Source: Takakia lepidozioides (taxonomy: Eukaryota; Plantae; Bryophyta). Taken from it: DNA of 64,000 nucleotides. Location of the stretch: NCBI GenBank assembly GCA_030704615.1, contig CM060734.1, forward strand, positions 62,062,001 through 62,126,000, read 5' to 3'. Made by a program: the position numbers and the translations under genes. The notes under the pieces are model-generated. The model saw nothing but the letters and a program-made list of their open reading frames with translations. It was not told the DNA's origin and searched no databases. This document shows, piece by piece, positions 2,651 through 31,500 of this stretch (its first letter is position 1; each line of letters starts with the position of its first letter).

Positions 2651-2697
2651 AGTTTCACAGACCGATCGCGATTCGCAGATGGAGACGTTGGAGACGT

Positions 2698-3341: not shown

Positions 3342-3672
3342 TCCGTCCTCAACACGTCTTTCAGCGTCCCGCCAAACTGCGCCAACAACCCTTCCCAAAA
3401 GGCTGCCGGCATAGGAGACATCTGTTGGTCGGTCGGAGCTCTCACGGATTCCTCGGGCTCCGACTCCTCGGATTCCTCCCGCTCTTGAGTGGCCTCGTTT
3501 TCGGAAACGTGCATCGCTCCCTCAAACGGCCGCCTCGGTGACACGTCGCCCCCATCGGGCTCACCAGGATCATCATCTTTTGGGTCGTTCCGCTTTCGCT
3601 TCGGCTTGCCCGACCCCATGATGAGGCCAATCCCAAGGACGATCACGTACTGAACTCTAAGCTCCGATACCA
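3342..3672 (-). mobile_element. PBS and start of the internal (gag-side) region of the nested chromovirus, truncated
   Basis: TGGTATCGGAGC (tRNA-iMet-type PBS, 3661-3672) lies 2 nt after the LTR end, followed by ORF MGSGKPKRKRNDPK..., which breaks off at ~3342. Confidence 0.75.
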
Positions 3673-3674
3673 AG

Positions 3675-4399
3675 TGTCGCGCACCTCACTCCGGTAAGCT
3701 CCCCTTCAAGTCATAGATACTCGCTTTGATGCGCGCGCCTGACTCCCAACCTGGCCGTCGGGCCAACTTGGAGCTTCGGCTGCTCACCGAGACATAACGG
3801 TCCCCCTTCGCTTCCCACTAAACCCTCCACCTATTTGGGCCTAGTGGAATTCCCTTTGGTAGATGGCAGTCCGGAACAGCTCCCCACTCTTTGGTCGCTT
3901 TCCGGCTCGCACGCTTACTCACTAGTTTTTGGTCCCCAACGGGCTTGCACCGTTCTCAGGGTTACTACTCCCTATATATATTTCTGTAGCTGTCCGCGGG
4001 GGTTTCACAACCAGCCATGCCATTTTATGGCGAACCACCACGAAAACCCTCGACTCCCGGTGATGAGTCGCGGTGAGTCTTGGCCCACTCACCACGACCC
4101 CTATGGACCGTGATGAGTCCCAAGACTCCCCACGTCTCCCACCACGAGGTCTCCGCCCCCATGGTGAGTCCTATGCCACCCCCACTAAGTCTCGCTAAGC
4201 TACCACCACCCCTTGTGGAGCCACCCCCACCGCAACCCGGTGTGCGGGGCTCCACCTAGTGAGCGCCTCCGCCTCCTTGAGTGCCTTGGGCACTCACGGG
4301 TGCTTCAGCCCCCCATACCTATCGCTGCCGCTGCCCCCACCACAGGGGCAGCCCCTCATGTGTCCCGACCTCCTGCCCTTAAGGCAAAGGGCCGCGACA
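3675..4399 (-). repeat. 5' LTR (725 bp) of nested Ty3/Gypsy chromovirus
   Basis: TGTCGCG...CGCGACA termini, followed by the PBS. About a dozen mismatches by eye versus 27794-28518. Preceded on - by TGGGA. Confidence 0.92.
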
Positions 4400-5936
4400 T
4401 CCCATATCTCCTCCCTCAGGAGCAGGAGGTGGACCATCCCGTCTGGGAGTCGGTACCACCTGAGCTGTAGCCATTGCAGCGAGCCTCTGCTCTAGCTGCT
4501 GAGGCCGGTTGGCCATGTCTTGGTCAACACCCTGACCTCCGCGTCCTTGGCCATGTTGAGCTTGCCCTTGGCCTGCACCTCGTGCCCGACCACCTCGTCC
4601 TCTCTGGGCTGGTCCACCTCGCCCCCGGCCACCATTGTTCCCTTGGAACTGGCCTGGGCGCAACTCAGGGTGCAAGTCATAACACTGGGCATCTCCATGC
4701 CCATACTTGCCACAATGCCCACACTGCAACTGTGCAGGCTGTGCTTGTGCCGGCCTTCTGCCACTCTCTGGGCAATCTCTCTTGATATGGGGTCCTCCAC
4801 ATGTCCAACATATCACCCCTGGTTGTTGTTGGCCTGCAAAAGATGCCACGGGCCTCTGCACATGAGGTCCCCTGTAAGCTCCATGGAACTTGGGTTGGGC
4901 AACCTTGCCCCCCTGACCACGCTGTTGGGCAGTCCCTTGTACCTGTTGGCTAGCAGCTGCACCTCGTGCAGGCATGTCCTTGCCAAATCCAATGGTAACA
5001 ACTCGCTCCTCCACCATGTTGAGCTCAATCCGCTCAGCCAGCAGAAACACATCCGCTAATGTGGGTTGGGCCGCTTGTAACAGGGTTGCATCCCGCACCC
5101 TTCTCTTGAGCTCTTTGTCCAAAATTCCATACCAGAACTGGACTGCCTGAGCTTCAGTAACCCCTTGGGTCACACTTATCAAGCGCCTCATACGAGTGTA
5201 GGCCTCTCGCAAGCTCTCACTGGATTTGCGCTGGAAGTCTTGCAAACTTCGCAGCTTCTCTGTCCGTACACCTTGGTAGTTCCTCCGCAACTCCTGGAAG
5301 AACTCCACCACCGGGTTGAATCTAGGCACATGTGTTGTAATTGTGGCAGGAGGAGTAGTAGCACATTTTTGAACTGGTACCACCTGCAGAAGTGCCGGCA
5401 CTACTTGTTCCACTACTAGTGCTTGTAGTTGGAGATATTTGTGTAACTGCTGGTGTCACCGCTGCCCTTGTGCCTCTAGTGATTGAGACATAGTTAGGTG
5501 ACCAATACTCTCGCCACTTCTCAATCTCCACCGCATGTCCCCGCCTAAATTCATGGTAATCATCCATGGGCGGCCCCTCAAGGTGCTGGAATAGCCCCTT
5601 CCACGCCATAAAGGGCGTAAACAGTTGTGGATTGCGCATTTGCTGCAAATCACACCAACTGTCAAACTCTTGTATAAAGTCATCAAGCTTGATGGTGCCC
5701 ACAGCTCCAGAGTACCTACGTGGCCCCTTGGTAGCTCCATACATCTCCTCCATCGTGTCCCACAACAATGGCATGGAAATGACTTGCACCCTCGGCGAGA
5801 ATCCTCCTGACTCCGAGTCTGAACCTTCCTCAGAAGACACTGAAGGTGAAAGTGGCCTAAACCGCACACCTTGTCTTGTGTACCCAATAGTATCGCTGGT
5901 GCTTGTACCGGCACTCCCCTCAGCAGCTGGTGGCAC
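4400..5936 (-). mobile_element. gag of the DNMT-carrying Ty3/Gypsy element (one frameshift near 5330-5410)
   Basis: Retrotransposon gag core (DFQRKSSESLREAYTRMRRL) and two Zn knuckles (CWTCGGPHIKRDC, CGHCGKYGHGDAQC). Closely similar to ORF 62602..63750. Confidence 0.88.
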
Positions 5937-6748
5937 CTCCGTGATGAAAACTCACAACCCAACCGGTTGTCAACCTGTCTCTAATCCCCACTTTCTACAA
6001 GGTAACCGGGTAAAGAACATGTTGCGGCTACTGGTTCAAGCAAGAATAATAGGTTTCTAACGTAGACCTGTACCTGCACCTACATCCACCGCAAGCACTC
6101 ATATGGTCTGCTGGTCATCAACCCAGCCTCACCATAGAAGAAACACTGGTGGTCTTGCTGGTCATCACTCCAGCCTCACCACCGACAGCATACTCTAGGA
6201 TTGGCCGGTGATCAAATCCGGACCAACCTCCTATGAAAACAAGCGTCCACACAAAACTAACATGGCGCACAGTCAAGCATGCAGGTGTAGAGGGGATCCA
6301 AACACAAGAAAATCAAGACAACAACTCCCCCACACCAAAAACACTCCACAGTGTCGCTCCTGCAAGGACACCCCAGCCCAAACCCGGACTGACTCTTGCC
6401 TCCACCTACGGAAAGGTTTTGGCCTACAGAGAGGGTGAAAGACTATGGAGAAGAGAAACTAAAGCAATTCCTAACCCCAGAATGCTCTCATCCCACCACT
6501 CTCCCTCCTGTCTCTATCCACTCGCTTGTATGGCCGTGGCAAGTATCCTTCAATATCCCTCAATCAATCTTTCAAGAGCTCTTCAACATTGTCCACCAAA
6601 GCTCCTCGAAGGGTCCTCCAAGGACCCCAAAGATCCTCCATACACTCCTCCAAGGACCCCAAAGATCCTCCAAATACTCCTCCAAGGGCCCTCAAATATC
6701 TTCCAAACAATCCTCCAAAGGCCCTTAAATTTCACTAAGTCCTTTCAC

Positions 6749-7232
6749 TGTTGATACCTTAACAGAGGTATAGTCTGAGGTTGCTAGGGTCCCTTATGTT
6801 GATGATACCTTTACAGAGGTATAGTCTGAAAATGAGGGTTCTGTTTGGTATACTAACAGAGGTATAGTCTGAGTTGATTAAGGTCCACATATGGTGATAC
6901 CTCAACAGAGGTATAGTAAAAGGGACAAGCTCCTGTTTGGTATACTAACAGAGGTATAGTCTGAACTGATTAGGGTTCACATATGGTGATACCTCAATAG
7001 AGGTATAGTAAAATGGACAAGCTCTTGTTTGGTATACTAACAGAGGTATAGTCTCACATTAGGGTTCACATATGGTGATACCTCAATAGAGGTATAGTAA
7101 AATGGACAAGCTCCTGTTTGGTATACTAACAGAGGTATAGTCTCACATTAGGGTTCACATATGGTGATACCTCAACAGAGGTATAGTCAAAGGGACAAGC
7201 TCCTGTTTGGTATACTAACAGAGGTATAGTCT
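6749..7232. repeat. Tandem array, ~11 copies of AGAGGTATAGT core, ~89-bp dimeric period
   Basis: Alternating GATACCTCAACAGAGGTATAGT and GGTATACTAACAGAGGTATAGT units. Confidence 0.92.
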
Positions 7233-8964
7233 GAGCATACACTACAAGGGTTTGTAATGAAGAGCTAGAATGCAAGTCCTTGACTTCTATGCTTCTACTC
7301 AAGCAAAAATATGGTCTCTAGGTGGTCATAAGAGGCATCTTCTTGCTCTCTTCCACCCCAATGTGCAACCGAGAGTGGTCCAACTCAACTTGCAAGTCAT
7401 ATTCCACCAAATCAATCCCCCTTCTAGTCCTTGGGATTTGATTGCAAACTACCATATCTCCATTGCCGAGCAATCATGCATTTGTCTCCTTATCACTTGA
7501 CAATTGCTCCAAATCAACACAAATTATCTCAATGTGTAGGAGCAATGCTTGTCACTTACAATAATGCTCCCAAGCAATCCGCCTTGGATCCCACTCTCAC
7601 GCCATATGCCTCATTTGGGGTCTTGCACCAATCCATCATCCATGTGCTCCCCGTGGTCATTTGAATGCATGTTTCATGACCTCTTGGCCTATGTGTTGCT
7701 CTCCTTCATCATAACATGAATCAACACCTCTCCACTTCACACACAAATGGATCTCAAAGGCCTTCACCTCTTGCTAGTTCAAGAGCTCCATTTCTCAAAC
7801 TTGAACTTACAAACTCAAGCAAGCATGCTCCACACATGCACCACTTGCTTGGTCAACTATCCACCACAAAACTCGCACTACCAAGAGCATGAATAGCCAA
7901 GTATTGCCTCCCCCTCTTGTCACATTACATAGTTAGGGTGAAGCTATGCATACATTGAATGATGATTTCCCTTCAAGGATTTCCCACCACATGTTCTCCA
8001 AGCCCTTCCAATGGCACCCTAAGCTTGGCTCCACACCACCATGATTGGAAGATTTCTTCACATGCTCCCTTTCAAAACCTCTTGAGCTTCTTAGTGCTCT
8101 CCAAGTGTTTGCCTTTGTTGTCTTCAAGCCCAAGCATATATAGCTCCTTGGCTTCTCTTCCACAACATCCACACTTTGAACTTGCTTAACCCTAGCTTGA
8201 TAGTGAAATGAGCACTAACAAGCCTTTAGTCACTCTCCACAAGCCATGGCGCACACCATCGACTCCATAATGCATACAAAGGATTCTCAAACCCTAGAAT
8301 CCATGCTTCCACACACACAAGACTTCCTCCTTACAATCCTTGCAAAATCTTGTGATTCAATAGCTTTCTTCTCAAGCTCTCCAACTCCTTGGTGCATGCA
8401 ATACTCGAGCACCTTTCCTTGCAACCCCTTGCAAGCCTTGTGATACAAGAGTTAAATTCTCCTAGCTCTCAACCTCTTTAAAATACAAGTGCAAAACTAA
8501 TCCTTACACTCCGCACTCACAAGCATAAGGTGATCTTCTTGTAGTGATAAGAGATGAGAAATGAGAGAAGTAGAAGACAATGAAAGCTCTCAAAGCATGA
8601 AGCAATCACATGAAGAACAAGCCCTAGTCCTTCCAAGTGAAATCCACTCTATCACATAAACTAAGTCAAGCCAAGGGCACCTTTGCTAAAGGAATCCACC
8701 CTCCAAAGCCCTCAACACACTCCCTCTCAATACCTAGAGCTATGGAGGTGAGAGAAGCTCATGGAGGCTCACTACAAGAAGATGAGCCTCCTCAACACTC
8801 ACAAGGGGAAAACCTATCTCCATGTCTCAAGTGAGGCTCGACACCTCACTTGGCATGTGAGACCAAATGAAGTCCCAACACACAAAATATAAATATAAAT
8901 ATATAAAATGTCATAGTTAACTAGAAGTAGGTAATTCTAGATAACCATGATTAAAACCATGACA
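6749..8964 (-). repeat. Putative ~2.2-kb 5' LTR of the DNMT-Gypsy element
   Basis: Minus strand begins TGTCATG (8964) and ends TATCAACA (6749), upstream of gag. Part (8640-8790) recurs at 15590-15765 beside a Gypsy RNase H remnant. There is no partner LTR to confirm the ends. Confidence 0.55.
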
Positions 8965-9183
8965 GATGTAAATGAACGGTGTTTTGGGGTATGGTATTTG
9001 AGGGATGTTTGTGGGGGAGTCTTGGAACTCATCACGGTCTATTGGTACTGGAGATGGCATCCTCTCAAATGCGCGTTGCTATACATGCCACAAATTAAAG
9101 TCAGTTTCTCAGGATGACAAACCCATATTCACTAAGAAATCCTCCCATCATCTGCAAAAACTCGTTTCCTGTATGTCATCCGA

Positions 9184-9715
9184 CAGTAAAGCACTTGCAT
9201 GGTGGACCTTCTTGGACGTGAGGGACAACCGGATGAGGCAGTGGACATGATCAATGAAATGCCCATAAATCCAGGTGTTGTGGTGTGGAAGGCCTTGCTT
9301 GGTGCTTGCAGAATCCATGGCAATGTGGAGATTGCTGAACGTGCAACAACATCTATCCTCATATGGGCTGAACATGATGCCGCGACTTATATGTTGCTCG
9401 AGCAAACATCTATGCTGCAGCTGGCAAGTGGGATGATATTACAAAGGTGAGAAGAATGATGAAGGTCAAAGTGGTTAGAAACGAGCTAGGTCGCTGCTAC
9501 ATTGAGGTTGGCAATAGGGTGGACACTTTCATTATAGATGACAAGTTGCATCCCAGAATTAAGGAAATCCATGCTAAGTTAAGAAGATTGACTGGGAAGA
9601 TGAAGGAGGCGGGGTATGTGCTTGACAGGCGCTTTGTATTGCATGATGTGGGGGAGGAGGAAAAGACATTTTCTCTTTGCCACCACAGTGAGAAGCTAGC
9701 CATTGGTTTTGGCAT
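9184..9715 (+). pseudogene. PPR E/E+/DYW RNA-editing factor C-terminal fragment
   Basis: MVDLLGREG...WKALLGACRIHGNVE, then GRCYIEV...MKEAGYV...LCHHSEKLAIGFG. Frameshifted and truncated before CxxC. Confidence 0.9.
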
Positions 9716-10281
9716 ATCTACCTTTGTATGTGAAATGTAGTGGGTACAAAACCCAAATTTCACCGGTTGCATGGCCAAAATGCAATGGGGGATTGAATTT
9801 CTAAGTGAATTGGAATTTGCAACGGTCAATCTATAGCATGGAAGCATTGAAAGCTACTGGAAAAAAAACCTGATGCAAATGTAAAAAATTCCACCTAGGA
9901 TGGAGTATTTAGTGAGATTCCAACTCAAGCTAAATTTCCAAAAAGAAGCTGCACTGGCCTTTCAGGGCCCGCCACGTGTGCTGGTCAAGCCATCCCTACC
10001 ACGACCCCTGCATACGGATTTTTGTATTTACTCAATGGGGCCAATATTAAATGCGTTGGATTCCTCTATTCAAGGGCTACAGTTTTTATTTAGGGCCATA
10101 CCTCATCCGAAGTCATCCACAGCAGCTGTGGGACTTACAAAAAAGGACGTGCCAAGGATGCAACCAGAAACTAGATCATTTAGGGGTTAACGAATTATTG
10201 AAGTTATATTTTTAGAAAAAATACTTATTCAAACAGATACCAAAACACACCCCTTGCAGGGAAGGAGAGTTTGCCTTAGTG

Positions 10282-11400
10282 CATCTGCTACTCTCTGTAA
10301 TCTAATAGGCATTCACCTTTTTGCCTAGGTTGTCCCGGTCAGAAAAGTATTCATTCCACAGCTCATCCTCATCTGTGTTACCTGTTTCTGGATACTTTCC
10401 TATTGTCACTTGGCACCTGGCACTATCATATCAAAGTCACTCCAAACTATCAAAGATTTACTCAACCAGCTAACTTACAGAATTCAACATGAAAATTTAG
10501 GGCCGATTCCGATAAGAGGGAAAAAAACAGGGTGAAATATGTTGATATGTTGCATTGATTAGCAGTGCCTGATTTATCAATTGTGCTGCTTCTGCTGTGG
10601 CTTCCAGGTGACCATCCCATGCAGGTTTCTTGTAGCTATCCTTCCACAGGGAATCATAGGTAATATGGAGCTTGAAATCCGGCCCTCTTGGATGGTCTGG
10701 ACCCAGTACACTCTATCCCTGCTCCTTCGGCTACCCATGCCTCTGCACAGATCATGCATTCATCCTTACATTGCTGTTAGCAGCTGACAATGACAGCCTA
10801 GATTTGTTCCAGCAAACACCCAACTCAGCTTATCACACTAGTTCCTATTCTCAATTCCATCTGCTACTCTCTGTAATCCAACAGCCATTTACCTTTTTGC
10901 CTCGGTTGTCCCACCATTGACTGGGGTCAGAAAAGTATTCATTCCACAGCTTCTCATCCTCTCTGTTACCTATTTCTGGATACTTTCCTATTGTCACTTT
11001 GGCAGTAAAAGTCACTCCAAACTATCAAAGATTCACTCAACCAGCTAACTTGAACATGAAAATCTAGGGCCGAAAAATAGGGTGAAATGTGTTGAACAAG
11101 GTACCTTGATAAGCAGTGTCTGATTTTATCAGTTGTGCCGCCGCTGCTGCGGCTACCAGTTGACCATCTACCCATGCAGGTTTCTTATAGCTATTGATCC
11201 ACAGGGAATCATAGGTAATTTGGAGTGTGAAATCCGGCCCTCTTGGATGAATCTGGACCCACACTCTATCCCTGCTCCTCCACCTATCCATGCCTCTGCA
11301 CAAATCATGCATGCATCCTTGCCTTGCTGCTAGCAGCTGACAACGACAGCCTAGAAATCTTCCAGCCAACACCCCAACCATACTTATCACACTAGTTCCT
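10282..11400 (-). pseudogene. Two tandem ~575-bp units encoding intron-split OSB-type PDF motifs
   Basis: EKLWNEYFSDPSQWWDNRGKK|gt...ag|HPRGPDFKLHITYDSLW..YKKPAW. A second unit reads IHPRGPDFTLQITYDSLWINSYKKPAWVDGQL. Confidence 0.75.
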
Positions 11401-12559
11401 ATGCGCTACAAAACTGCTGAGGCCCGTAGCATCAGTATGAGGTAAGTGGTAGAACACCTAGTGTCATGTTGTCAACTACAAGAGTGTTAAAGATGCCCAA
11501 TAAGTACCAACAAGCCCAAACAACTTATGTGATGACATATGGCATGAGAAACCAAAAACCAACGTGTACCTCTTGGGATGACATGACAAGGTCAATGCAA
11601 ATGAACCATCGTGGTACCTGCCCTCCACAACCATCCCAAAACCAGTCCCATGGGATGACTTGAGGGATTCATCAATGACTAAGTATAACAAACACGACAA
11701 TGGGCTTCCATAAGCATGTGAAACCGACATACGAAACCAGATAATGGACTGAAGAAACCATGATACAAGTGACAAGAAAAACAAGAAAAACAAGAAAGAC
11801 CTAAGGTTGGTATAAGCAGCCCTAAAATAAGAAATAGTGCTCTACCAAGGCATGTTCAAAACTCCGTGGAGGCCTGGTAGGACATCCCTGAAAGCAGTAA
11901 ACAGCTTATGAGGTGATGCATTGTTCAAGGAAAACAAGAAACAAAATGACATAGCCCCCTCCACAAGCAGCCCACAAAACCACTATTGCCAATGAAAACA
12001 GGAAACAAAACATGGTAGGAAAACAAAAAACAAAAATGAAACAGCCCTCCACAAGCCTGCGTGACAAACGTCCAGCTTTGCAACTGGAAAAAGGGGAAGA
12101 ACAATAAACAACCCTCCACAAAAATTGCCACTGAAGAAAAGAAACAAACAACAAAGAGACCTCCAGAAAAAGCCCACACCATAGTGTACCTGTTGGGCCG
12201 AGGTGCGATTGACCACATGCAGCCCCCTCCACAAGCCGAAAAAAATGAGTGTTGCCACTGAAAACAGGAAACGAAACATATCAGGACCTCCACAAGCTAT
12301 ACAAAGCCCATCAAACAATGATTGGAGGCCTCGACAAGCAGCCCACTAACCAGATAACAGCTTGTGGGAACGGCTTGATCAGCTCACTAGCCTGACAGTG
12401 CTAACCACGATGAGCACTACACACGGATAACTTAGCAAAAGGTAAGGGAGACGATGCTACGCCTCATGCGCAATCCAGGTGATATTTGTAGGTCCTGCCA
12501 TCACTATGAGCACTGATACTATGCTCCATGACACCACATTGCATACAGCACCTTAGCTG

Positions 12560-12800
12560 CCCAACACCCCCTTTAATGCATCCTTCATGCACCCGCATTT
12601 GGCATACATGTCCACCACGGCACTGGTCAGGATGACATCTGATAAAATCCCAGCTTTGATGATGCCACCATGGACCTCTTCCCCATTTTCCAGGGCGCTA
12701 GGATCGAACACGCATTGCAAACACAAACAAATGTGACTGGCCTGGGCTCCACCCTTTCTCGCATCATTTGCTGATAAGTCTCCAAAGCCTCATCACATGC
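12560..12800 (-). pseudogene. PLS-class PPR fragment
   Basis: EALETYQQMMRERVEPRPVTFVCVCNAC, then (shifted) AVVDMYAKCGCMKDA. Confidence 0.8.
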
Positions 12801-12814
12801 CTTTGCTTTGCGAG

Positions 12815-13865
12815 GTAACTTGCAGAATTCAACATGAAAATTCAGGGCCGACCCTGATAACATGGAAAAACAGGCTGAAATGTGTTGAAGAAGGTGCCTT
12901 CATTAGCAGTGCCTTGTTCTATCAGCTGTGCTGCTGCCGCTGCTGTTTGCAGTTGACCATCTACCCCACACAGATTTCTTGTGCTTTTGATCCACGGGGA
13001 CTCAGAAGTATTCTTGTGTTTGAAATTCGGTCCTCTTGGATGAATCTGGACCTCTATCCCTGGTCCTTCAGCTATCCCTGCCTGTGTACAAATCATGAAT
13101 ACATCCTCAGCCTTGCTGCTAGCAGCTGACACTAACGGCATGACGTTCTTCCAGCAAACACCCAACCCTACTTATTACACTAGTTTCAATTCTGAATTGC
13201 ATCTGCTTCTCTCTGTAGTCCAACAGGCATTCACCTTCTTGTCTCCATTGTCCCATCATTGACTGGGGTCAGAAAAGTGTTCACTCCAGAGCTTCTCCTC
13301 ATCTCTGTTAGCTGTTTTTGGATACTTTCCTACTGCCACATCGTCACTAACTTGTCAGAGTCACTCCAAACCACCACAGATCCACCCAACGAGCTAACTT
13401 ACAGAATTCAATATGCATCTCAGGGCCGAGTCTGATGAGAGGGCAAAACAGGCAGAAATAGGTTCAAGAAGAAGGTGCCCTCACCACATTGTCCTTGACC
13501 TTGTGTCATGACCCATGGAGGATTTGACCGATCACCAACCCAAAAGGACCTCTTGTGTGTGCTGCTTGTGTCTGTAGTCAGGAAATGTCGGTTTGGTCTG
13601 TGTGAACCACCAAGGTGCAGCTGAGCAGGCAGAGATTGAAACACGGCCTGCTAAGACCAAGCTGACTCTCCCAAGAACCTTGTAAACATCAGGAAGAATA
13701 CCAAATCATGGTAGTAACAGGAGCCAAGAGCCCACATTTGCAGGATGGACAAAATTCTTGACATCGTACATTAAGGAAAAGTCACACCTTGCGATTGCGG
13801 TTGTCCCACCATCGTGCAAATTCCAGCTGCGAGAGATACGGCGGTGTACTCATAATCTGCAAATG
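12815..13865 (-). pseudogene. Two further OSB-type PDF motif units
   Basis: RWWDNRNRK|gt..ag|TKPTFPDYRHK...NPPWVM and EEKLWSEHFSDPSQ*WDNGDKK|gt..ag|IHPRGPNFKHKNTSESPWI. Confidence 0.75.
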
Positions 13866-13879
13866 TAAACCCTAAACAG

Positions 13880-14165
13880 ACGGCATGCATCCTTTATGCT
13901 ATTGCGTTCTGCATACAGATCAGTAAGAGTAGTCTCCAGCATGATATCTCGAACAAAACCAGCTTCGACGACGTCTGCATAGACCTCTTTGCCCTTCTCC
14001 AGCGCTCATAGCTGGAAGCATTGAGGACGCAAATGATTATGGGCTTCACCCCTTCCTGCATCATCTGATTGAAGATATCTAAAGTCTCCTCATGACACCC
14101 ATGTTGAGCATACCCTGCGATCGATACACTCCACGAACCATTTGGTCAAACACTTGACGGGCATC
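13880..14165 (-). pseudogene. PLS-class PPR fragment
   Basis: IAGYAQHGCHEETLDIFNQMMQEGVKP...LEKGKEVYADVVEAG...TDLYAE..SIKDACRLF, with indels. Confidence 0.75.
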
Positions 14166-15179
14166 ATCCTCCCGTCCCCAAACATCACCAAAAGCAGAAG
14201 CTGGCAGCCCCTTCATAGCCTACCCACTGCACTTCCCAGCACATGTCAAAATCTAACGAGAACAAGAACAACAGTCAGTCACTCCTCACAATCGTCTAAG
14301 TGATTGTGAATTTTTTTTTTTGTATCTTTTGTTTTTTTGGGAAGGGGTCTGAGGCCCTGCACGAACTTTATTTATAATTATTGGAGGGAAAAAAAGTTAA
14401 AACGTTAAAACCCTCGGTTGCCAAAGGCTGCCATAAGGCATGTCACACGGGAGGCCGTGCCAGATAACGAAGCGCTAGTAACTGTAACTAGAACAGTAAA
14501 GAAGACACCATTAGTCGTGATTAAATCACAAGAAACTCCAAGTGTGGAGAGAGTCCAGCACTCCACAGAATGTTCATGCAGGTGGAGTGTAGCATTGAGG
14601 TAGTAAGTGTAATTTTGCAAGTGGGAGGGAAGAGGGTTAGAAGAAGACACCAGCCCTAAGATAGCTTGGCAGAGGTTGGATCGGGGTGCGACGGAACGGG
14701 GTGACAGCGAGAGGGTATTGTGAACTAAAAGCGAGTAACTTGAATTCTTTCTATTTTAACTAAATAATATTACCATTATTTTGGAAATTGCTGCCATGGA
14801 GAGTAAATAGAGAATTAAACCCGGAGCAGCCACGCGTCTTTTCCTAATTGACCATGCCAACTCATACAGTTGACCAGGATCACAAGAATGTGTGAGATAT
14901 ATCATATCCAATAACGCTTATCTCATTTCACACTTGTGTGAGATAGACAAATCCTGCATCCTACATGGTTAACATGCCATGTCATACCGTGGATTTCCAA
15001 GGTGTGGTGAACATGTGGGACACCCCACAATAATGCCATATACGGTTCTCACACCTTGGCTCAATCTACACCCCTGAGAAAAGCCATGGAATATGCCAAG
15101 TGTGAGACCCCCATACCGTGAAAAAAACCATTTTCTCTTGTAGTGAACTTCCACGCACCATAAACGTGAGTCAAGTGGG

Positions 15180-15765
15180 AAACTACTATCGACGTTCATC
15201 AAGGGATTAGTGCTATTGCAAATGCCCTAACTATTAAGCTTACCAAAGTGGATCAGGAGGCAATGGGAAGATGAGCAAGAGCGAGCTTTTAAGGAGCTCA
15301 AGGCAATATTAACAATCTTAAGACGGCTATCAGAGGTCATCCATTTCATCTGCATACGGATTGGAATATGTTGGGGCTTGGAACGGTGCTCACATAGGTG
15401 GATGATGAGAGAAAACAGATCATAGTGGCTTATACTAGTCGCTTGACCACTGCAGAGGCAAAATAGAGGGTGGGTGCTTAGTTGCAGTATGGGCTGTGAC
15501 ACACTTCAGGTGCTACCTATAATCTCTTCACCATTATCACAGATCACCAGTCACTCAAGTGGTTGATGGACTGAGACATTGACAATGGCGCTTCAAAACT
15601 GAGACATTGCAAATGAGGCTCATCTTCTCGTACAGTTGAGCCTTCATGGGTGTCTCTCACCTCCATAGCTCTAGGTATAGTAGGGAATGTGTTCAGGGCT
15701 TTGTAGGGTAGATTTCTTTAGCAAAGATGTCATTGACTTGACTTAATTTATGTAATAGAGTGGAT
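15180..15765 (+). mobile_element. Decayed Ty3/Gypsy RT-RNase H remnant plus LTR fragment related to 8640-8790
   Basis: Broken frames give WEDEQERAFKELKA, PFHLHTDW, IVAYTSR, AVWAVTHFRCYL, TDHQSLKWLM. CTCTCACCTCCATAGCTCTAGGTAT is shared with the reverse complement of ~8730-8755. Confidence 0.75.

Positions 15766-18588: not shown

Positions 18589-18591
<3 letters not shown>

Positions 18592-18657
<66 letters not shown>
18592..18657. repeat. (TC)n microsatellite
   Basis: Perfect dinucleotide run, ~33 units. Confidence 0.97.
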
Positions 18658-18660
<3 letters not shown>

Positions 18661-20158: not shown

Positions 20159-22824
20159 GATATCGATCTTCGCTAGGAGCTTACGTCGATCACTGGAGAT
20201 GGATGCTTGCAATTGTAGTATAATATCCCACTCACGAAGATGGCCTTAGATTAGACTCTTGTGGTGTCTCGATGGGCCTACAACAAAAGCAGCTAGTGTT
20301 GAATGCTCGGCAATGTTGAGACAGTCATGCAACGCTGAGTATTGTGATTGACCATTCTCTCCCGTCTTGTTATATACTTAGACGTCCATTCACTAGACGT
20401 TAAGGAAACTTTATCTTTATCTCCAGATAAAGACCGGCCATTCTTTTAGTGGCGAATAATTCTTAGTGGCAATAATCGCCAAATTTGACCTCCCTTGGGT
20501 CCCGCCGACTAAGGGAATTAGGTTGAAAAATTTAGGGATTTTGCCAAAAGCTGATTTGGTGGGCCCATCATTCGCCGGAGGGGAAGAGGGAGGCACTTAT
20601 CACCAGCCATTCTTCTAGTGGCGAATAATTGCCAGATTTTGACTTTTGGCGACAGGGGCAAAGAGAAATGAGGCTGAAAAATGCAAACTTTTTGCCAAAT
20701 GCTGATTTGGTGGGCCCACCATTCGCCAGAGGGGCTGCAAGAGGGAGGCACATGGCGCCATATTGAATGAAGGCAATTTACAACAGAGGAGCCAAATCCC
20801 ATCGACCACCTGCAGGACATCGCCCCGTTCCGAATGGCGGGAGGACGTGGAGCCAGCTATGGTGCCCATTTTCTACATACACACACATATATGTGGGTAA
20901 GTATAGTCTTTATAGATAGACACAAGTCAAATGGCTACCCAAGGGAGTTATCTACCGCTAAGATACCCATACAATATTGCAAATTCATCACTACAAATTT
21001 TGTAACTATAGCCAGATCTATACAGGTACACCAATAGATATCGCAGAGCACTATGATGCCTGTAAATGTTTCCATGTACATGTACCGCCCAACTCGTCTT
21101 AGCTTCCATGGGTTGCTGCCTTGGTCATTGTGCAAGTAGCATTCATAGCCTTTTTTTTTTTTTTCATATTCCAATATTGGAGCCACAAATTTTGTATCCT
21201 AAAAATCAGAGTGTCGCCATCACAAATTATTATTTGGTTTTACACTTCGCCAAAACTCAACTTGAATTTATGAATTGTTGCCAGCCATTGCACCAAAAAA
21301 TTTGAATATAATCGCCAATTCAGTTCCAAGGAGCCTGCTGACTGTAGCCATGTCTGTGCAACTTCAGAAATGAAAAAAAATGGCTGGTGACAGATTTAGG
21401 TTCAAAGAGGGTTGTAAATATGTCAATCATTGGGATTTTGGGGACGGAGGGTGAGGAGTTTAGCTCAACATGTGCAACATGTGGTTAATAAAATCGCAAG
21501 TACAATTTTTATTAATTAAATGTATTTATTACCGTGATTGGTCAATTGATGGTCTTCAACCTAGGCTTATGCTATGTTTGTTGGGATATGCTCCCCCATG
21601 CAGGGCCTCCAGGGTCAGAGTAGCAGAAGATAATAGGAATAATGTAAGAACTTAATGCACACGTGCAACCTCTGGCAGGATATATGGTATGCCAGTTTCT
21701 AGCATGTCAAATCATCCCCACCCTCTCTTGAGAGTGACATAGAACTGAAGGTCGAGTTGGGGTTACACGATGAGGTGTGTAACTCCACTCGGGATTACAC
21801 AGAATGGAGTGTAACTCCTCTCGGTGTAACTCACACTTGGTCTTGAAATTTGACTAAGTCCAAATTGGGTTAAGTATAAAATGGACTAACCAGAGTTACA
21901 TCAGAAACCGGGGTTACAAACGGTTACATTGATTGGAGGGTTACAATACCGGGGTTACACCAAGCGCCTCCCATCAAGAATTGAGCCCTGAACCTCGTTG
22001 CCTACGACGATATCACCTCACCATCTTGCTACCCACCACAGCTTGTAATCCATTTGGATTCTTAAGTACTAGGGCTTCGCGTTGCTTCGCACTACTAGCG
22101 ACGAATTCTGAGAACTACCTTCAATTTTTCACAAAAAAAAGGGTGGGTCATCCCCACGGTGTTACATGCAAAGATCCCGTGTTTTGTTTTTTTCTAGAAG
22201 AAAAATGACGGATCTGCATTTCAAGGTTCAATTTTCACAAGCCGCATCAATCAATAACAACATACCCAAATACCCTTGCATTCACTATATGAACTTTCAA
22301 GCATCCACCATGGGATTGGATCTTGGTGGGTTAAGCCTAGCTTTTGACAATATTCATGCAAATTCGTCAAGGGCTCCATCCAAAGCCACACCACGAGAAA
22401 CAAACAAACATGTCCAAATTTAAGATGCTGAACAAACTTGTGCATAGGGCTACCCCTCTCATCAATCTCATTAAAATTCGAATTCACTTCCATCTTCAAG
22501 CTTTGGAGAAGCTCCACCACCCAAACCCAGAAATAGGACAGCACTCCGATTTCCATCTACTGTCACCAGAATCAGTCAAAAATCACCCCTTCAGTCAAGT
22601 GCAATTGTGGGCTGACTTTCCACCTATGCCGGGTAGACCGCACCATCAGGAAATGGTGGATGGTCTGAGTAGCTACACAGATCAATGAATGAAGCAAGAC
22701 ACTTGCATCTTGCACCCAACAGTACATGATGATCAATACTCTCAGGAAATGGTGGATGGTCCGAGTAGCTACACAGATCAATGAATGAAGCAAGACACTA
22801 GCATGTTTCCAAGAAAGCATCCTT

Positions 22825-25040
22825 TCACCAGTAATCACCACAAGAACAAATCCCATCTTCAAAGTGGTGGAAAGAAGTTAGCATCCCATACAACAATTGC
22901 TCGGCCAACAATCTTTGAAATGAATTTGGTGGAGGTGTGGCAGTCTCCACACACTTGAAGATTCTTGATGAGTCGTGCTGATCAGCCCAAAACCAATGGT
23001 CAGCTTCTCACTGTGGTGGCAAAGAGAATATTCTTTTCTTCCACATCATGCAATAAAAAACGTGTGTCAGGCACATACCCCGCCTCCTTCATCTGCCCAG
23101 ATGCTCTTCTCAGCTCAGCATGGATTTCCTTAATTCTGGGATGCAACTTGTCATGTGGCTTCTTTCTAGCCCATCTGACCTTCATCATTCTTCTCACCTT
23201 TGCAGTGTCATCCCACCTGCCAGGGGCAGCATAGATGTTTGGTATAACAACACATAAGTCGCAGCATCCTGTTCATCCCACTTGAGGATAGATGTTGCCA
23301 CACATTCAGGCATCTCCACATTGCCATGGATTCTGTAGGCACCAAGCAAGGCCTTCCACACCACAACATCTGGATTGATTGGCATTTTATTAATCAGGTC
23401 CACTACCTCATGTAGTTGTCACGCACGTCCATAAGGTCCACCATGCAGCCAAAGTGCTTTACTGGCGGGGTGACACCATGATCTTGACTCAGGGAATCGA
23501 AGTAGCGTCTTCCTTCATTCAGTAGGCCAGTGTGGCTACATGCAGAGAGAACACATATAAAAGTGATATTGTCCGGCTTCAAGCCGTTCTTTTGCATTCC
23601 TTCAAATAGTTGTAGGACCTCCCTATGACAACCTCCCCCTCCCACTCCCACTCAAACTCCAAACTCCTTTATAGATTTCTGTACATCACACAAAGGAAGC
23701 CCTAAATTAAAGCTGACTTTGGCTGGGGAAGAGCTGTAACCATCTCTGTCTTGATGAAAAGGGCAGAGATCTTAGGTGATCAGTCAGCTACTAACCTGTG
23801 ATAAGAGGAATTATGTAGTCCACAGTTTGCACGCCAAGCATCCCAAGCGAGATGTAGGGCGTCGACTCCAGATGGTGCTTGGCATGTGACAATTGGGCAC
23901 CGATACATAGCAACATCAGAGTTAGGGTTGCCACACTCAATGACCCTTCCAGACTCTTCTAAGAAATGATCTCATCTCGCTGTCGCTTGTAACTGATCGG
24001 GAAAGTTTCAAGATTCATCAGTTTGAAGTAAAAAGGTTCGTCCACATTCCGCCGGCTGGTGATGTCTATCTTCACAGTTGGTCTTGTGAGCCACCTAGCA
24101 ACTATTGCGGGGTACTCCAGAACAATTTCAAGGGAACAGTCAAGCCCATCATCTAAGGAATCTGCATTTTCCTGGAGCAGCGTCCAATTGGCATCTACTG
24201 GTCAACAGCCCTTTATGTACATTTTCCTATCCTTGGGATAATACAGACCTTCTGCAAAATACACAAGCGGTTTTCAACAGAAAACCCACCTGGTGTAATC
24301 TTCAAGTGAGCTCCCACTTTGAAATATTCTGGTTGCTTGGTTGGTGGCGTGCACTTGAGCGAGGATTCGCTTTTAACGGCATCATCCATTGTCCCTCTGG
24401 AACCATGGTAAAATTACTCTCCTGATCTCTCCAGTTTATCGCACTCCATGACACCACATCTCGTTCATGTCAAAAACTCCCTTTGCATCCTTAATGCACC
24501 TACATTTGGCATACAGGTCCACCAGGGCAGTGTTCAGAATGACATCTGGTACAATTCCAGCTTTGACAACCACATCACATTTGTTTGTGTTTACAATGCG
24601 TGTGCAAGCCTGGGAGCTCTGGAAAAGGGGAAAGAGGTCCATGGTGACATCACCCCTTCGCGCAACATTTGCTCATAGGTCTCCAAAGCATTCCTACCAT
24701 ACCCATGCTTGGTAAATCCTGCCAACATTATATTCAACGTGATCAAAGATCGCTGAGGCATTCTGTTGAACACTTGGTGAGCATCCATGATGCTCCCGCA
24801 CTTTACATACATGTTGACAAGGGTATTGAGTAGAAAAACATTTGGCGTGAATCCACTTTGGATAATGTGAGTGTGCACCTGCTTTCCAGCTTCCAGACCT
24901 TCCATCTTGATGCACTTAAGCAAGAGACAGACATACATATCTGAATCTGCTGAAATGCCTTCTTGGTTTAAAGTCTGTAGAGCCTCCGTCAGTCTGCCGA
25001 GCCTCCGTCAGTCTGCCTGCCGCACAAAGCATCTTCATAT
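22825..25040 (-). pseudogene. PLS-DYW PPR gene, near full length but frameshifted and interrupted by an ~800-bp insert (23632-24435)
   Basis: N-terminal PPRs (NTLVNMYVKCGSIMDA), S2/E motifs (VWKALLGAYRIHGNVE), [19 protein letters not shown] and terminal GICSCGDYW* at 22825. Confidence 0.9.
23890..24430 (-). pseudogene. DUF2921-family membrane protein gene fragment inside the PPR pseudogene
   Basis: EGLYYPKDRKMYIKGC*...DGLDCSLEIVLEYPAIVARWLTRPTVKIDITSRRNVDEPFYF...FPISYKRQRDEIIS*KSLEGSLSVATL matches my recollection of plant DUF2921 proteins. Has in-frame stops. Confidence 0.65.
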
Positions 25041-25659
25041 GTCCGAAGATGCATTGTGGACTGGGTGAATGCAGGGTTGAGTGGACCAAAATGGACGTTA
25101 CCGGCACAGTTTTAGATGACTGCAATTGATGGTGTCATCAATTGAATTTGAATTAATTCATTAAAACCAGCAAATGTATATGTCATTGTATTCCTAGCTT
25201 CAATCTCACCCATAGCAAGTCTCCAATCATGAATCCGATAAGAAATGACTCTGCTATGGACTTTTGAACACCGTCATTGTGGACTGTTACCGCTATGAAT
25301 GGAATTACAATGGACTCAAGTTCTCATATGTGCCATTGGTGAATTCCATTGAAATTTGGACTTAAGGTGGCCATTTTGGTCCACATCATAGGTATGGATT
25401 TGAAGTGGCAAAATCATTTGTCATTTGACTCATATGGACTAATATATATAAAAAAATAGTCGTTTTTTTGAAAAGTCCATAGCTCATATTGTTTTTTGGA
25501 ACAAGTCAGATTTCCAACGAGTACTCTCGCAAACTTGCAAGGAGGCTATAGTACAGAACACCATCCGTTCATTTCATAACTTGAGCTCTTGGGTCCTTGC
25601 CAAATGTTAGTGTAACAATCAAAGTGGTTAATGTAAATTTTTGATACTTTACCCTGCGG

Positions 25660-26888
25660 CACTCTTAAAGAAAGAGTATTTCTGGCCTAAACTGAGGGAG
25701 GAGGCGGAGGAGTATGTCAAGACATGCACCACATGCCAACAAAACCGGAGCGAGTACAAAAAGCAAGCGGGGCTGTTACAACCCTTGCCGATTCCAGAGG
25801 GGACTTGGGAAAGCGTCTCGATGGATTTCATGATTGCTATGCCGCTGTCAAAAGGATTCGATGCAATCATGGTGGTGGTGGATAGGTTCAGTAAAATGGG
25901 TCATTTCATCCCCACCAAGGAGACGACAACGGCGCAGGAGACAGGGCGACTTTACTTCGCCCACGTCTTAAAGCATCATGGAGTCCCGAAGGATATTGTT
26001 TCGGACCGCGATCCAAAGTTTACGAGTAAATTTTGGAGGGCACTTTGGAAGAAGATGGGGACGAGGCTGAAGATGAGCACCGCCTTCCGACCTACGACCG
26101 ACGGCCAAACAGAAAGAGTGAATTCCGTAGTGAAGTAGATCTTGCGGAATTACGTGTCGGCAGACCAAACAGACTGGGTGGAACACTTAGACGCGGCAGA
26201 GTTCTGTTATAATAACATAGAACACTCCGCAACGGGAGTTTCCCCTTTCGTATTGGTCTATGGAAAAGCACCTCTGGTGCCGACAAGTTGGGCCGCCCAA
26301 GACGTTGAGGAACCGGCAGTAGCGGCAGTACTGGAAGAACGCGAGCGTTTGTTGAGGCTCGCAAAGTACAACATTGCCAAAGCTAGGAAACGGTATGAAA
26401 GGCAGGCGAATCGGAAGCGGAGGGAAGTGAAGTTTGAGGCAGGCACGGAGGTCTGGTTGAACATCAAGAATTTCCGACTACCTCCGGAAGTGAGTCCGAA
26501 GTTCGTACCTCCGTATGCGGGACCCTTTCGCATTCGGAAGGTTATGAATGAGGATGTGTATGAATTGGAGCTGTCGGCAAACAACAAGGTGCACCCAGTA
26601 TTCCATGTCTCCCTTTTGAAGCCTTACTTCAAAGATAAAGCGCGTCCGAATCGGCATCAAGTGTTGCGTCCGCCACCTATGCTGTTGGATCATGAAAATG
26701 AACCTGAGTACGAGGTGGAGGCAATACTTAAGTCGAGGAGGTTCAAGAACCGAGAAACGGAGTATCTCGTCAAATGGAAGGGCTATCATCATGTGGAGGC
26801 ATCTTGGGTGCGTGCCTCAGAAATGGGAAACGCATCCGAGGCGGTCGCAGCTTTCGAAGGGCGACCTCAAAAGCGGAAGAAGCGTTGA
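25660..26888 (+). mobile_element. Chromovirus integrase plus chromodomain (3' part of nested element)
   Basis: CTTCQQ Zn-finger end, VSMDF, VSDRDPKF, TDGQTERVN, GPF module, chromodomain YEVEAIL...YLVKWKGY...SW. One stop at 26136. Confidence 0.93.
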
Positions 26889-27793
26889 TGGGGACATCAA
26901 CCTTGGAGCGTGGGGGAGGAAATGCATGCTTAGCCCGGCTTAGCTAGCTTAGGAATCCGATTGCAAAAACTTGTATTGTACAAAACGTGCTATAAATGAA
27001 ATGGATTCCAAATGTTGTGCGTCCTATTTTGTTTGGAATGGTGATGCATGGTATGGTTGGCTAGTGTGTAGAATGCATGCTAGCTTATAAAAGTGGGAGA
27101 GGTAAATTGGGTTAATCGTGTGTTTGCATAGTGCCGAAATCGGGTGACCCCCATCCGAGGGGCAAGGAAACTTGCGCCTTCTTTGGGAGTTCACGTGCTA
27201 GTGCGTACCTGGCGCGTGCGCGTACTATAACTGCGCTACCGAGGGGGTTGCCTTGTAGTGCGGGCTAACGCGGAAGCTACGTGCTTCCGTTCACGTACTA
27301 TAATCGTATAGCCTCGGGACGAAGTCGTAGTGCGGCTTCGGCGTGTTCCCGTACCTCAGGCCAGCATTCCAAGGCGGACCCAATTGTAGTGATTGGGGCA
27401 CACGGTTGGTTCAAGGTTATCTTCCTAGTCAAAGAGGGTTCCAGGTGAACCCTTGCTCAAGGTGATGCCAAAAGCGGCATCATGAGCGGTCGCAAGCAAC
27501 GTTGTTGCAGTAAGGCGATCCGATCCTCGGGGAGGATCGTTCCTTGGCCTTGAAGTAGGCCAAGAAGAGTGCACTGGGAGGAGCTGGAGAGGCTCCACCC
27601 TTGGCCGGGACTTGGAGGAAGTCGGCCAAACTAGCTAGTGGAGAGTAGAGTCAAGTGTGGGGTTTGGTTCTTTGCCATGGGACGCCATGGTGCGGAAACA
27701 AACTCCTTGATGTGGGACGCCACAACTTGGATGTTCGTTTCTACAAAATGGAGAAGTCGATGAGGACATCGACTCCCTGTTGGTAGGGGTGTG

Positions 27794-28518
27794 TGTCGCG
27801 GCCCTTTGCCTTAAGGGCAGGGGGTCGGGACACATGAGGGGCTGCCCCTGTGGTGGGGGCAGCGGCAGCGATAGGTATGGGGGGCTGAAGCACCCTTGAG
27901 TGCCCAAGGCACTCAAGGAGGCGGAGGCGCTCACTAGGTGGAGCCCCGCACACCGGGTTGCGGTGGGGGTGGCTCCACAAGGGGTGGTGGTAGCTTAGCG
28001 GGACTTAGTGGGGGTGGCATAGGACTCACCATGGGGGCAGAGACCTCGTGGTGGGAGACGTGGGGAGTCTTGGGACTCATCACGGTCCATAGGGGTCGTG
28101 GTGAGTGGGCCAAGACTCACCGCGACTCATCACCGGGAGTCGAGGGTTTTCGTGGTGGTTCGCCATAAAATGGCATGGCTGGTTATGAAACCCCCGCGGA
28201 CAGCTACAGAAGTATATATAGGGAGTAGTAACACCGAGAACGGTGCAAGCCCGTTGGTGACCAAAAACTAGTGAGTAAGCGTGCGAGCCGGAAAGCGACC
28301 AAAGAGTGGGGAGCTGTTCCGGACTGCCATCTACCAAAGGGAATTCCACTAGGCCCAAATAGGTGGAGGGTTTAGTGGGAAGCGAAGGGGGACCGTTATG
28401 TCCCGGTGAGCAGCCGAAGCTCCAAGTTGGCCCGGCGGCCAAGTTGGGAGTCAGGCGCGCGCATCAAAGCGAGTATCTATGACTTGAAGGGGAGCTTACC
28501 GGAGTGAGGTGCGCGACA
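27794..28518 (+). repeat. 3' LTR (725 bp) of nested chromovirus
   Basis: TGTCGCG...CGCGACA termini, preceded by a G-rich PPT-like tract and followed by TGGGA (TSD). Confidence 0.92.
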
Positions 28519-31500
28519 TGGGAGGCATGGGATTCATGTGCGGAGCAGCACTACTACTAGTGCAAGTGGAGTCTGCTGCAGCCATGACTCGAGGAGCAGC
28601 ACGAGTTCCTGAGCCACGAGGTGTAGAGGTGGAATTGGATCCACAGCGTGGGGAGGCAAGCCGTCAGGCGAGGCTTCCTCAGTCACTCACATTGGCGGAG
28701 ACAGTGTCGACGCCATCCATGGCACCTAGTTCTCGCCCGACTGTTACCGAGGCGGAGGTTGCTATGTCATTGGGGGAGAGCTACACGTGCAGCACTGACA
28801 CCTGCTACCAAGGCTAGTGCAGCCGGTGTGTTATTGGGGGCAGCCACCTCTGTGTTTCAAGCCCCACTGTTCTCGGCAACCATGATTGCGACGCCAGGGG
28901 TAAGACCAGCTACAGTGTTCAGACTAGCAGCAACACTCTGCGAGAGTGGGGAAGTCACTTCATCTTCTGTGGAGTTACTGGAAGGTGTAGTGGCAGAGGG
29001 ATCCTCGGATTTGAGGGTCAAGACTGCCACGGCTGCGCCATGGCAAGCTGCAGCTGCCAGGTTGACGGAGCTGCCAGCTAGGCCAGCCTTTGAGCGCGCC
29101 ATGGTGACACCTGGAGTTGTCTTGTTAGACAACCAGGGAGGCATTTTCACTTTGAGTGGACCGGCAGGCAAGAAGTACCGGCCACTGTGGGTCTTGTTGG
29201 ACTCAGGAGCTCAGCCACTGATGTTGGGCAGAGCTGCTATTGCAGGTTTGGGCCTCATGGAGGCGGATATGGAGCCTTGTGCTTTCCAGATACAGACATC
29301 TCTGGGATGATCAGAGCAGGCTCGGGGCATGAAACGGCGTGAGTTGGCCATTGGACTACAACCAGATCATCCTGTAGATGGCTCAATGATACGAGCCAAG
29401 GCCATTGTCACAGAAGCAGTCTCTTACGATGTCCTTGTTGGTGGGGCAGTGTTATATCCCATGGGCTTCACCCTGGACTTTAGGGAGGAGTCAGCATCTT
29501 ACAGGCCTGGATTGCAGTCAGGGGATGGTCGTCGTGCACAGCTCCCTGTGACATTCATTGGGGGTATTGCGGCTGCCCAGTGGGGCAAGATGCCAACACT
29601 AGCCACCTTTACAGCTGCAGTTAGTTGGCCTGGAGAGTTGTTGGAAGGCAATACCCATGCAGAGGATGTGCCACCTCCAGCAGAGCAGGATGACATGCAT
29701 GGTATGGCGGAGTTGCCTGCCATGGTTGCATGGGGTACGAGCAAGGATTTGCAGCAGGCTGCTGATAGACGGGTACAACAAGCCTGGGTAGAGGCCTTCG
29801 TACTGTCAGGAGAAGAGGAGAGTGCGGTGATTGCACCAGATACACCTCAGTTGTCGCCATTGGACACCACACCTCTTGTGTGGCAGTGCCCGGATGAAGG
29901 CATATGCCTTCTGGACTTGTTTGGCGGGATCAGCACTGGATTGGCTGCAGTACTGCAGGCAGGTGTACGAGTTCGACGTTACCTGTATGTGGAGAGGGAT
30001 GAGACTGCACGACGTGTCTCACTGCGCCATGTTGCTCAGTTGGTACAGCAGTACCCTGATTTGTTGCCAGTGTCTGCAGTTCGTGGATACCAACAAGCCT
30101 TGCCAGCAGACATTTCGTTGTTGGGGGCGCAGGATTTGGAGCGGGTTGGCTCAATTGATCTGGTAGTGGCAGGTTGGCCTTGCTAAGGGCATTCATCAGC
30201 CGGGCATGACAATGGATTGCAAGACTCGAGGACAGGTCTGTTTTGGGAGATGGTGCGGATTTTGCGCCACTTACAGCTTCATCAAGTTGTATCTCCAGCA
30301 TACATCTTGGAGAATGTGTCACTGATGGGTGATTCTCGAGCCAGGGTGATGGCCAGTGTGCATCAAGTCCGGTCGTGGTTTGGGTCAGCAGTGTTGCTGG
30401 ATGCAGCTGCAGTGGGGTCATGGGCTCATCGTCCACGGCTATGGTGGACTAACTTGATGCCACCCGCACTGCTCAAGCGTGCATTTGATGGGGTGCAGCA
30501 GCCAGCACACCTCACAGTGGATAGCATTTTGGACACAGGGAGGCAGTCTCAACGTGTGAGACACGATGACCGTTCGCCTTTGGCAGTGGTCAACAGGGTG
30601 GGTCAACCACGAGCAACATTACCTACACTGCTCAGCTTCCTAGGATCCCATGCTTTTCGGGATGGTGGACCTGGCCTCTTGTGGGATAGCCAGTTGCAAC
30701 AATTAGTGGAGCCCAATGCTGACGAGCACGAGCGGGCGATGGGTTTTACCACAGGTACCACGGCGGTGCCATCTCTTTCTAAGGCATCACGTCGTCAGGT
30801 GTTGGGGCAAGCAATGGATCTCAATTGCTTGACCTGGATTATCAGCTTGGCTATGGCTGAGCAGCGCAGAGTACGGAGTACACTTCCCTTCATGGTCTCC
30901 CTGCCTACCGAGACGGTACAGGCAGCGAGTGGGGGTGAGCAGGTGAGGACCACGAGGTGCAGGCCGCATCCATGGCACACGTGGGAGGTGCTCGAGGTTC
31001 AGAAGGAGTTGGCAGCCAAGGCCGGCGGTGATGGATCAGGTTGGGGATTTTTCTCGGATTGAGGAGGTCCTCAAGGATGGGATGATGGGGCAGGATGAGA
31101 CATTGTCACTGACAGAGGAGGCAGTGGTCACTGCTCAAGAGGTTGCAGCATAACAACCACGGGACGCGTCTTCTACCTCTAAGCCTGCTGAACTCAAGGT
31201 TGCAGTCACGGAGGACAACTGGGAGCCTGATGTTGGACCTATAGTCACCGGAGGAGAGAGACAACGTATATGGCGGTTCTTGAGGGCTTACAGGAACTGC
31301 TTTGCCTTCAGTTTGAAGGACTTAGGAGCACTGAAGGGTCAAGAGATTCGCATTGAATTGGCTACTGACACGCCAATCTTTCGGAGACCCTATAGATACA
31401 GTGACATGGAGACTTGATTCAGATGAGAACTCAGGACCTTTGGGAGGCTAGTTTGGTGGAGTTATCTGGGGGAGAGTATGCTTCAGCCACAGTGATGTCA

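Follow-up and report, generated by a model that had tools for sequence, protein, structure and literature searches.

How does a retrotransposon come to have its two long terminal repeats (LTRs) in opposite orientation, with the parts of a second element split around them? This question is raised by a 64,000-nucleotide stretch of the Takakia lepidozioides genome (GenBank assembly GCA_030704615.1, contig CM060734.1, positions 62,062,001 to 62,126,000), the whole of which we call the window. The inner of the two retrotransposons is a chromovirus. The outer one, which we call the DNMT element, is a Gypsy-type element that carries a DNMT3-like cytosine methyltransferase. We are nearly certain that the chromovirus inserted into the gag region of the DNMT element, and a single 22.3-kb inversion (3342–25653), following two DNA breaks with loss of ends, probably turned the 5' parts of both elements around after that insertion. 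An earlier note, made from the sequence alone, had proposed that one element inserted into the other and that an inversion with deletion came later, and that proposal is supported by two split pairs of target-site duplications (TSDs) and two non-homologous junctions.

Self-comparison of the window revealed a single near-identical long pair near the locus (3675–4399 versus 28518–27794, 98.3%). These are the chromovirus LTRs, each 725 bp in length, in opposite orientation and with TG...CA ends, and they differ by 12 mismatches (9 transitions; Kimura two-parameter distance 0.0168). The inverted pair had been described in the earlier note, as had a primer-binding site (PBS) beside the left LTR, which we take to be of the tRNA-Met type, and a polypurine tract ahead of the right LTR, and all were recovered here, although the tract is weak. 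With the TSD, the usual parts of the element's ends are all present, and a chromodomain lies at the C-terminus of the integrase (Pfam Chromo, E 8e-13). The integrase begins at the right break within its zinc finger, contains one stop (26136–26138), and picks up at residue 1073–1126 of full-length relatives of 1484–1540 aa. At the other break, a short, acidic open reading frame (ORF), presumed to be gag from its position, begins 41 nt past the PBS and ends at 3342; it had no significant match to full-length chromovirus proteins. The entry point of the integrase and the ~92 codons of this gag stub indicate that ~3 kb of the chromovirus has been lost. The loss takes in the gag-reverse transcriptase (RT) region, as had been claimed, and extends to RNase H as well.

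Each LTR adjoins one half of the gag of the DNMT element. In a paralogous fragment at the right edge of the window, the left half aligns to 62563–63074 (357/497, 71.8%) and the right half aligns from 63073 onwards (662/910, 72.7%), the two meeting at 63073–63074. The halves are colinear and abut in the paralog, as the earlier note had stated, but at the joint, where the paralog reads ...PMPREDQIGMGFMCGAAL, letter identity is limited to the right-hand motif. As both halves are equally distant from the paralog, the objection that they might come from different subfamilies fails. We also compared the halves with relatives of the DNMT element, which were obtained by scanning metagenome contigs for its methyltransferase (88 confirmed stretches, 80 kept). 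In 43 of the 46 relative loci holding both halves, these are colinear and no more than 150 bp from expectation, and the remaining three miss the filter solely through a 9-base overlap of alignments.

The TSDs tie the separated parts together. TGGGA stands on the outer sides of both LTRs, as first reported, and would match by chance with a probability of ~9e-4 based on base composition. A second split pair, CATC, lies at the outer ends of the DNMT element, where 4 bp is the only length over which the flanks match (chance ~0.004 from base composition), and CATC/TG occurs once on the minus strand within 6900–9500. The TGGGA and CATC pairs together indicate that 3342–8964 and 25654–32650 belong to one nested insertion, and the second pair strengthens the original proposal of nesting and later inversion. 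From the position of CATC at 8965–8968, the DNA to the right of 8965 is the original upstream flank of the DNMT element.

The two halves of the nested insertion face opposite ways, ~17 kb apart, and this change in orientation is very probably real. There are exactly two new junctions, at 3342 and 25654, each mid-way in known sequence; they are reciprocal, as in a simple paracentric inversion, and would enclose a block of 22,312 bp. At the left break, the flanking repeat is cut within its homology to the copy at 13165–13866, which itself extends a further ~360 bp to 12802, and the position given for this break in the earlier note stands. The right break, previously put near 25660, lies at 25653/25654, the point at which 20 chromovirus contigs of one public run (X1) diverge from the window. 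The sides of the junctions share no long homology and both breaks are outside the LTRs, and this is evidence against both recombination and a misjoin driven by repeats; recombination between the LTRs was rejected because the breaks are outside them.

The DNMT element inserted first and duplicated CATC. Internal deletions took away its RNase H, half of its integrase and its 3' tail, perhaps before a chromovirus entered its gag and duplicated TGGGA. We propose that breaks inside the chromovirus and ~20 kb upstream followed, with the segment between them flipped and rejoined by end joining without homology. In this process the chromovirus would have lost ~3 kb and the flanking repeat at least ~360 bp. 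At substitution rates between 4.8e-9 and 1.3e-8 per site and year, we infer from the LTR pair that the chromovirus inserted 0.65–1.75 Myr ago and that the inversion is younger.

That all 22.3 kb was flipped in a single event is the most likely reading, based on parsimony and not on proof, and several observations weigh against it. The 360 bp that the cut repeat has lost were not found within 2 kb of 25654 (scores 25–26, shuffle means 25–26), and there is no sign that 8969–25653 moved as one block. The GC skew of the two flanks (-0.06 versus -0.52) is uninformative on their continuity. The 5' terminus of the DNMT element was placed by the TSD and a 7-mer, TGTCATG, of which the window has 16 copies; beyond the 7-mer this end has no significant likeness to relatives (107 of 500 random slices score equally), so that the evidential weight falls on the CATC TSD. 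Comparison of 21500–33600 with contigs of four public runs at 90% likeness was swamped by repeat copies, and none of the 32 pieces listed, beside which there were >134,000 further matches, bridged 25654, 28519 or 32650. The share of 0.23 for one run (X5) is no indication of habitat.

In a more complex history, there would have been more than one inversion, or the 5' block would have been translocated or duplicated in inverted orientation and its original lost, so that the span moved at once was smaller or larger than 22.3 kb. No trace remains of the ancestral join between 3341 and 25653, the interval is much rearranged with fragments of pentatricopeptide repeat (PPR) sequence on both strands, and the DNMT copy underwent two other deletions, all of which would suit such a history. 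It requires extra junctions, however, and none was identified where two suffice, and the upstream flank is still joined to the element via the CATC TSD. We consider it unlikely. It is more doubtful still that chimeric molecules in the libraries or a misjoin in the assembly inverted the segment. Such an artefact would be in keeping with the lack of a bridging contig among the matches listed and with the fact that the best runs contain only 55–63% of the sampled words, but it would require a 3-kb loss and a matching pair of false junctions in a window that has no N, and the sides of the junctions lack homology and fall outside the LTRs. In addition, the two LTRs retain their 12 differences, and unique DNA beyond the element (33117–33287 and 33386–33590) shows 0 differences to public contigs.

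An aberrant transposition, in which the chromovirus was the target of a DNA-transposon end at 25654 and the segment was turned around as a result, is very improbable. The minus-strand bases left of 25654 read GGGTAAAG, which is like some Mutator ends, but the 100 bases there (25555–25654) have no partner inverted repeat in any part of the window (best score 33, shuffles 28–35) and the left break is within a repeat unit and not at an end. The mechanism itself has been published for maize (PMC8225341, available part). Lastly, that two unrelated broken copies came to lie in opposite orientation by chance is hardly credible and already largely excluded, for although both families are abundant in the public runs compared and the window holds a second DNMT-element fragment, the shared nested insertion site and both TSD matches would all have to be coincidental (product for the TSDs 3e-6 from base composition, before allowing for the choice of 5' end).

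Table 1. Coordinates of the features of the nested insertion and its surroundings, in window positions.
Feature	Position	Strand	Basis or remark
Left flank, member of a repeat family with ~570-bp units	2694..3341	+	80% to 13866-13165
Chromovirus gag stub (putative), ~92 codons, cut at left break	3342..3619	-	assigned by position only
PBS, presumably tRNA-Met type	3661..3672	-	2 nt beyond left LTR end
Chromovirus 5' LTR	3675..4399	-	98.3% to 27794-28518
5-bp TSD TGGGA, first copy	4400..4404	-	outer side of left LTR
DNMT element gag, 5' half, split into two ORFs	4405..5951	-	Retrotrans_gag below cut-off; colinear with relatives
2.1-kb segment, TGTTG...CAACA ends, 89-bp tandem array	6749..8880	-	within the element's 5' region
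DNMT element 5' terminus TGTCATG	8958..8964	-	same 7-mer starts 24/28 relatives with a 5' A repeat
4-bp TSD CATC, first copy	8965..8968	-	adjoins TGTCATG terminus
Original upstream flank, probably inverted with the 5' halves	8969..25653	.	contiguous with TSD; PPR fragments, repeats, CVNH ORF
Chromovirus integrase and chromodomain	25654..26888	+	Pfam Integrase_H2C2, rve, SH3_Tf2-1, Chromo
Weak polypurine tract	27782..27789	+	ahead of right LTR
Chromovirus 3' LTR	27794..28518	+	partner of 3675-4399
5-bp TSD TGGGA, second copy	28519..28523	+	outer side of right LTR
DNMT element gag 3' half and protease region	28524..29859	+	LLDSGA motif read by eye; stops, one frameshift
DNMT3-like cytosine methyltransferase	29860..31030	+	Pfam DNA_methylase; DLFGG, GWPC, ENV motifs
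RT fused to C-half of integrase near 32020	31405..32583	+	RVT_1
Terminal B repeat remnant, 3' terminus GCACGACA	32590..32650	+	score 62 versus B of L069
4-bp TSD CATC, second copy	32651..32654	+	adjoins B remnant end
Paralogous DNMT-element fragment, gag uninterrupted	62563..64000	+	self-comparison, alignment to both gag halves

The anatomy of the DNMT element was clearest in its relatives, in which the order is gag, protease, DNMT, RT, RNase H, integrase and PHD. These elements start with TGTCATG (24 of 28 5' ends) and end with ACA, and they have no LTR pair. Their ends are split repeats, which we denote A and B. The A repeat occurs as an end solely at the 5' side (with no TGG after it in the three of three displayed), and among the 23 relatives with a B repeat, eight have the layout A-ORFs-B-nn-A-B, 13 have a single B and two have a fused B/A. 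Exact 4-bp TSDs were found in seven of the ten relatives with both ends, two of which (L034 and L062) represent one insertion, and in all ten with at most one mismatch; at 3, 5 or 6 bp the same loci gave no exact TSD. In seven of seven loci checked there was no stop-free stretch >124 aa between the integrase and the end, which leaves little room for a tyrosine recombinase. Matches in the PDB for one relative (P0019) were to DNMT3A/B in 16 of 16 cases, although weak (E 0.004–0.01), and homologs of the element were named from Marchantia, Calypogeia and Sphagnum.

Several other observations were made on these relatives. A PHD finger lies at the C-terminus of the integrase (L034:13901–14371; P0041). 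At the 3' ends of L020, L034, L035, L049, L062, L069, L074 and L075, the spacer between the first B and second A repeats (B1 and A2) is exactly 2 nt (8/8) and reads CA-nn-TG or a mutated form of it, resembling the junction of unprocessed cDNA ends, and a G-run stands ahead of B1 in the four loci displayed. Large internal deletions are also present in L030, L056 and L059, where they fuse the methyltransferase to the integrase.

The copy in the window keeps an A start and a B end, and its methyltransferase lies between the protease and RT (Pfam DNA_methylase), with a stop at 30184–30186 directly after the residues PC. At the join of RT and integrase, ~1.42 kb is missing, with a short microhomology at the join, and this loss corresponds to RNase H and the first half of the integrase. 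In 20 relatives, 1171–1457 bp separate the end of RT from the point at which the integrase of the window copy resumes; in the window copy there is nothing between them. The PHD/B1/A2 tail is gone too, and the B remnant that ends in GCACGACA (32643–32650) has a score that was matched by 2 of 500 random window slices. No LTR pair of the outer element was found within the window. The whole LTR-gag-PR-MTase-RT-INT element reconstructed in the earlier note was not recovered. That reconstruction is wrong at the ends, as the family has split repeats, and it is wrong in being complete, as RNase H, half of the integrase and the PHD tail are deleted. The copies of the chromovirus and the DNMT element are both dead.

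The 2.1-kb segment in the 5' region of this copy is possibly a further insertion. It lies 84 bp inside the 5' end, and its flanks have no 4- or 5-bp TSD, only a 3-bp match. Part of it (8642–8790) is repeated in inverted orientation at 15615–15765, beside an RNase H fragment. We rejected its tandem array (6749–7235) as an LTR of the outer element because it has no second copy and no match to relatives, and we rejected the RNase H fragment (15200–15577) as the piece deleted from this copy because it is degenerate and only ~42% identical to relatives, compared to 62–70% for RT. A 32-bp stretch at 9014–9045, 50 bp outside the 5' end of the DNMT element, is 91% identical to the chromovirus LTR.

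Based on these sequence comparisons, we tentatively suggest that the family may be a Gypsy lineage of non-seed land plants that carries a DNMT3-like enzyme and a PHD finger and integrates circular cDNA. Under such a model, the unit primed at the purine tract would be B-nn-A, and its internal CA-nn-TG would be cleaved by the DDE integrase. A circle of two units would give A-ORFs-B-nn-A-B and a circle of one unit A-ORFs-B, in either case with TG...CA ends and a TSD of 4 bp. The relatives include both of these forms (8/23 and 13/23). Circles are usually regarded as dead ends for retroviral-type integrases, and the single-B form could also arise from recombination between B1 and B2 or from assembly collapse.

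An element of similar content, KnitGypsy-Dnmt3 of Klebsormidium nitens, has an intronless DNMT3-related domain in the Pol of a Gypsy element, and according to the legend to Figure 4 of the paper, in the part available, it combines Gypsy domains with repeats of a DIRS-like structure (de Mendoza et al. 2018, PMC5890265). The present family shares with it a C5 methyltransferase of DNMT3 type in Pol and, in relatives, the Gypsy order gag-PR-RT-RH-INT, and the DIRS-like layout fits the split repeats of the relatives, with B-nn-A-B in 8 of the 23 that have a B. It differs in that it occurs in a genome of embryophyte type and has homologs among liverworts and in Sphagnum, and in its TG...CA ends, 4-bp TSD, 2-nt B/A spacer and C-terminal PHD, which are absent from the text of PMC5890265 examined; the main text, to that extent, makes no mention of Marchantia, fern or PHD. 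No Klebsormidium name was among the 53 matches of our homology search, and the resemblance rests on description. A preprint (10.64898/2026.05.21.726589, available part) mentions "streptophytes (Gypsy-DNMT3)", and in the literature searched the term Gypsy-DNMT3 was found only there and in PMC5890265. In that literature, to which most subscription papers and Repbase reports do not belong, we found no paper describing land-plant DNMT-carrying Gypsy elements, and nothing on "split LTR" with gypsy or on PHD with Marchantia.

Retrotransposons of the PAT/Ngaro/TOC1 type have split direct repeats in an A1-ORFs-B1-A2-B2 layout. This layout is that of 8 of the 23 relatives with a B repeat, whereas the Gypsy-type integrase region, TG...CA ends and TSDs set the DNMT relatives apart from that type. 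In contrast to the DIRS order, with its tyrosine recombinase and lack of TSDs, the relatives have TSDs in 10/10 cases within one mismatch and no long ORF after the integrase-PHD region, and in contrast to canonical LTR retrotransposons the outer element does not have two full direct LTRs and a PBS.

The inner element resembles the plant chromoviruses of REXdb in its integrase with chromodomain, paired LTRs, 5-bp TSD and PBS (Neumann et al. 2019, PMC6317226, available part). The aromatic cage residues of the chromodomain are apparently present, as judged by eye, and this motif is restricted to non-seed plants according to the same source (PMC6317226). Since most Tcn1 elements have no PBS (PMC6317226), the tRNA-type PBS speaks against a typical Tcn1. 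The best relatives of the chromovirus, of which one was named from Riccia, are 49–54% identical to the window copy, from which RT is deleted. Small inversions with deleted ends are routine. Nesting is common in islands of transposable elements (PMC9033089, available part), and the present locus stands out solely by the unusual clarity with which its two nested TSD pairs document what happened.

Other features of the window include an intact-looking ORF for a cyanovirin-like lectin (CVNH) at 19100–19567 on the minus strand, within the inverted block, and a young Copia element at 33627–36780, flanked by 255-bp LTRs (99.2%), whose gag continues into RT and in which no integrase was detected. Degenerate PPR fragments occur on both strands (9180–9712, 12524–12800, 13885–14200, 22900–25007 and 56076–57860), and the fragment at 24328–25135 matches very many contigs, as if it had been amplified as a repeat. 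An exon of a CHR24/ERCC6L-like SNF2 gene (52207–53067) and a further degenerate Gypsy pol (58937–60625) are both on the minus strand. Taken by itself, the sequence suggests a non-seed land plant through its PPR and CVNH domains, the relatives named from Marchantia, Calypogeia, Sphagnum and Riccia, and the cage of the chromodomain, whereas the SNF2 exon gave no placement of the host lineage. A search for tRNA genes in the window found none.

The locus is a clean teaching case of a nested insertion and inversion, dated by its LTR pair, and element finders that need two direct LTRs will miss or mislabel such loci. The inversion, which would have relocated the CVNH ORF, is ordinary turnover in a repeat-rich plant region, and the family of the outer element is the more interesting part. 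DNMT-carrying Gypsy elements have already been published for Klebsormidium. The copies in Marchantia, a tractable model, make two questions accessible to experiment, namely whether the cDNA of a transposon is methylated by the transposon itself, and by what route an integrase-bearing element with split ends replicates.

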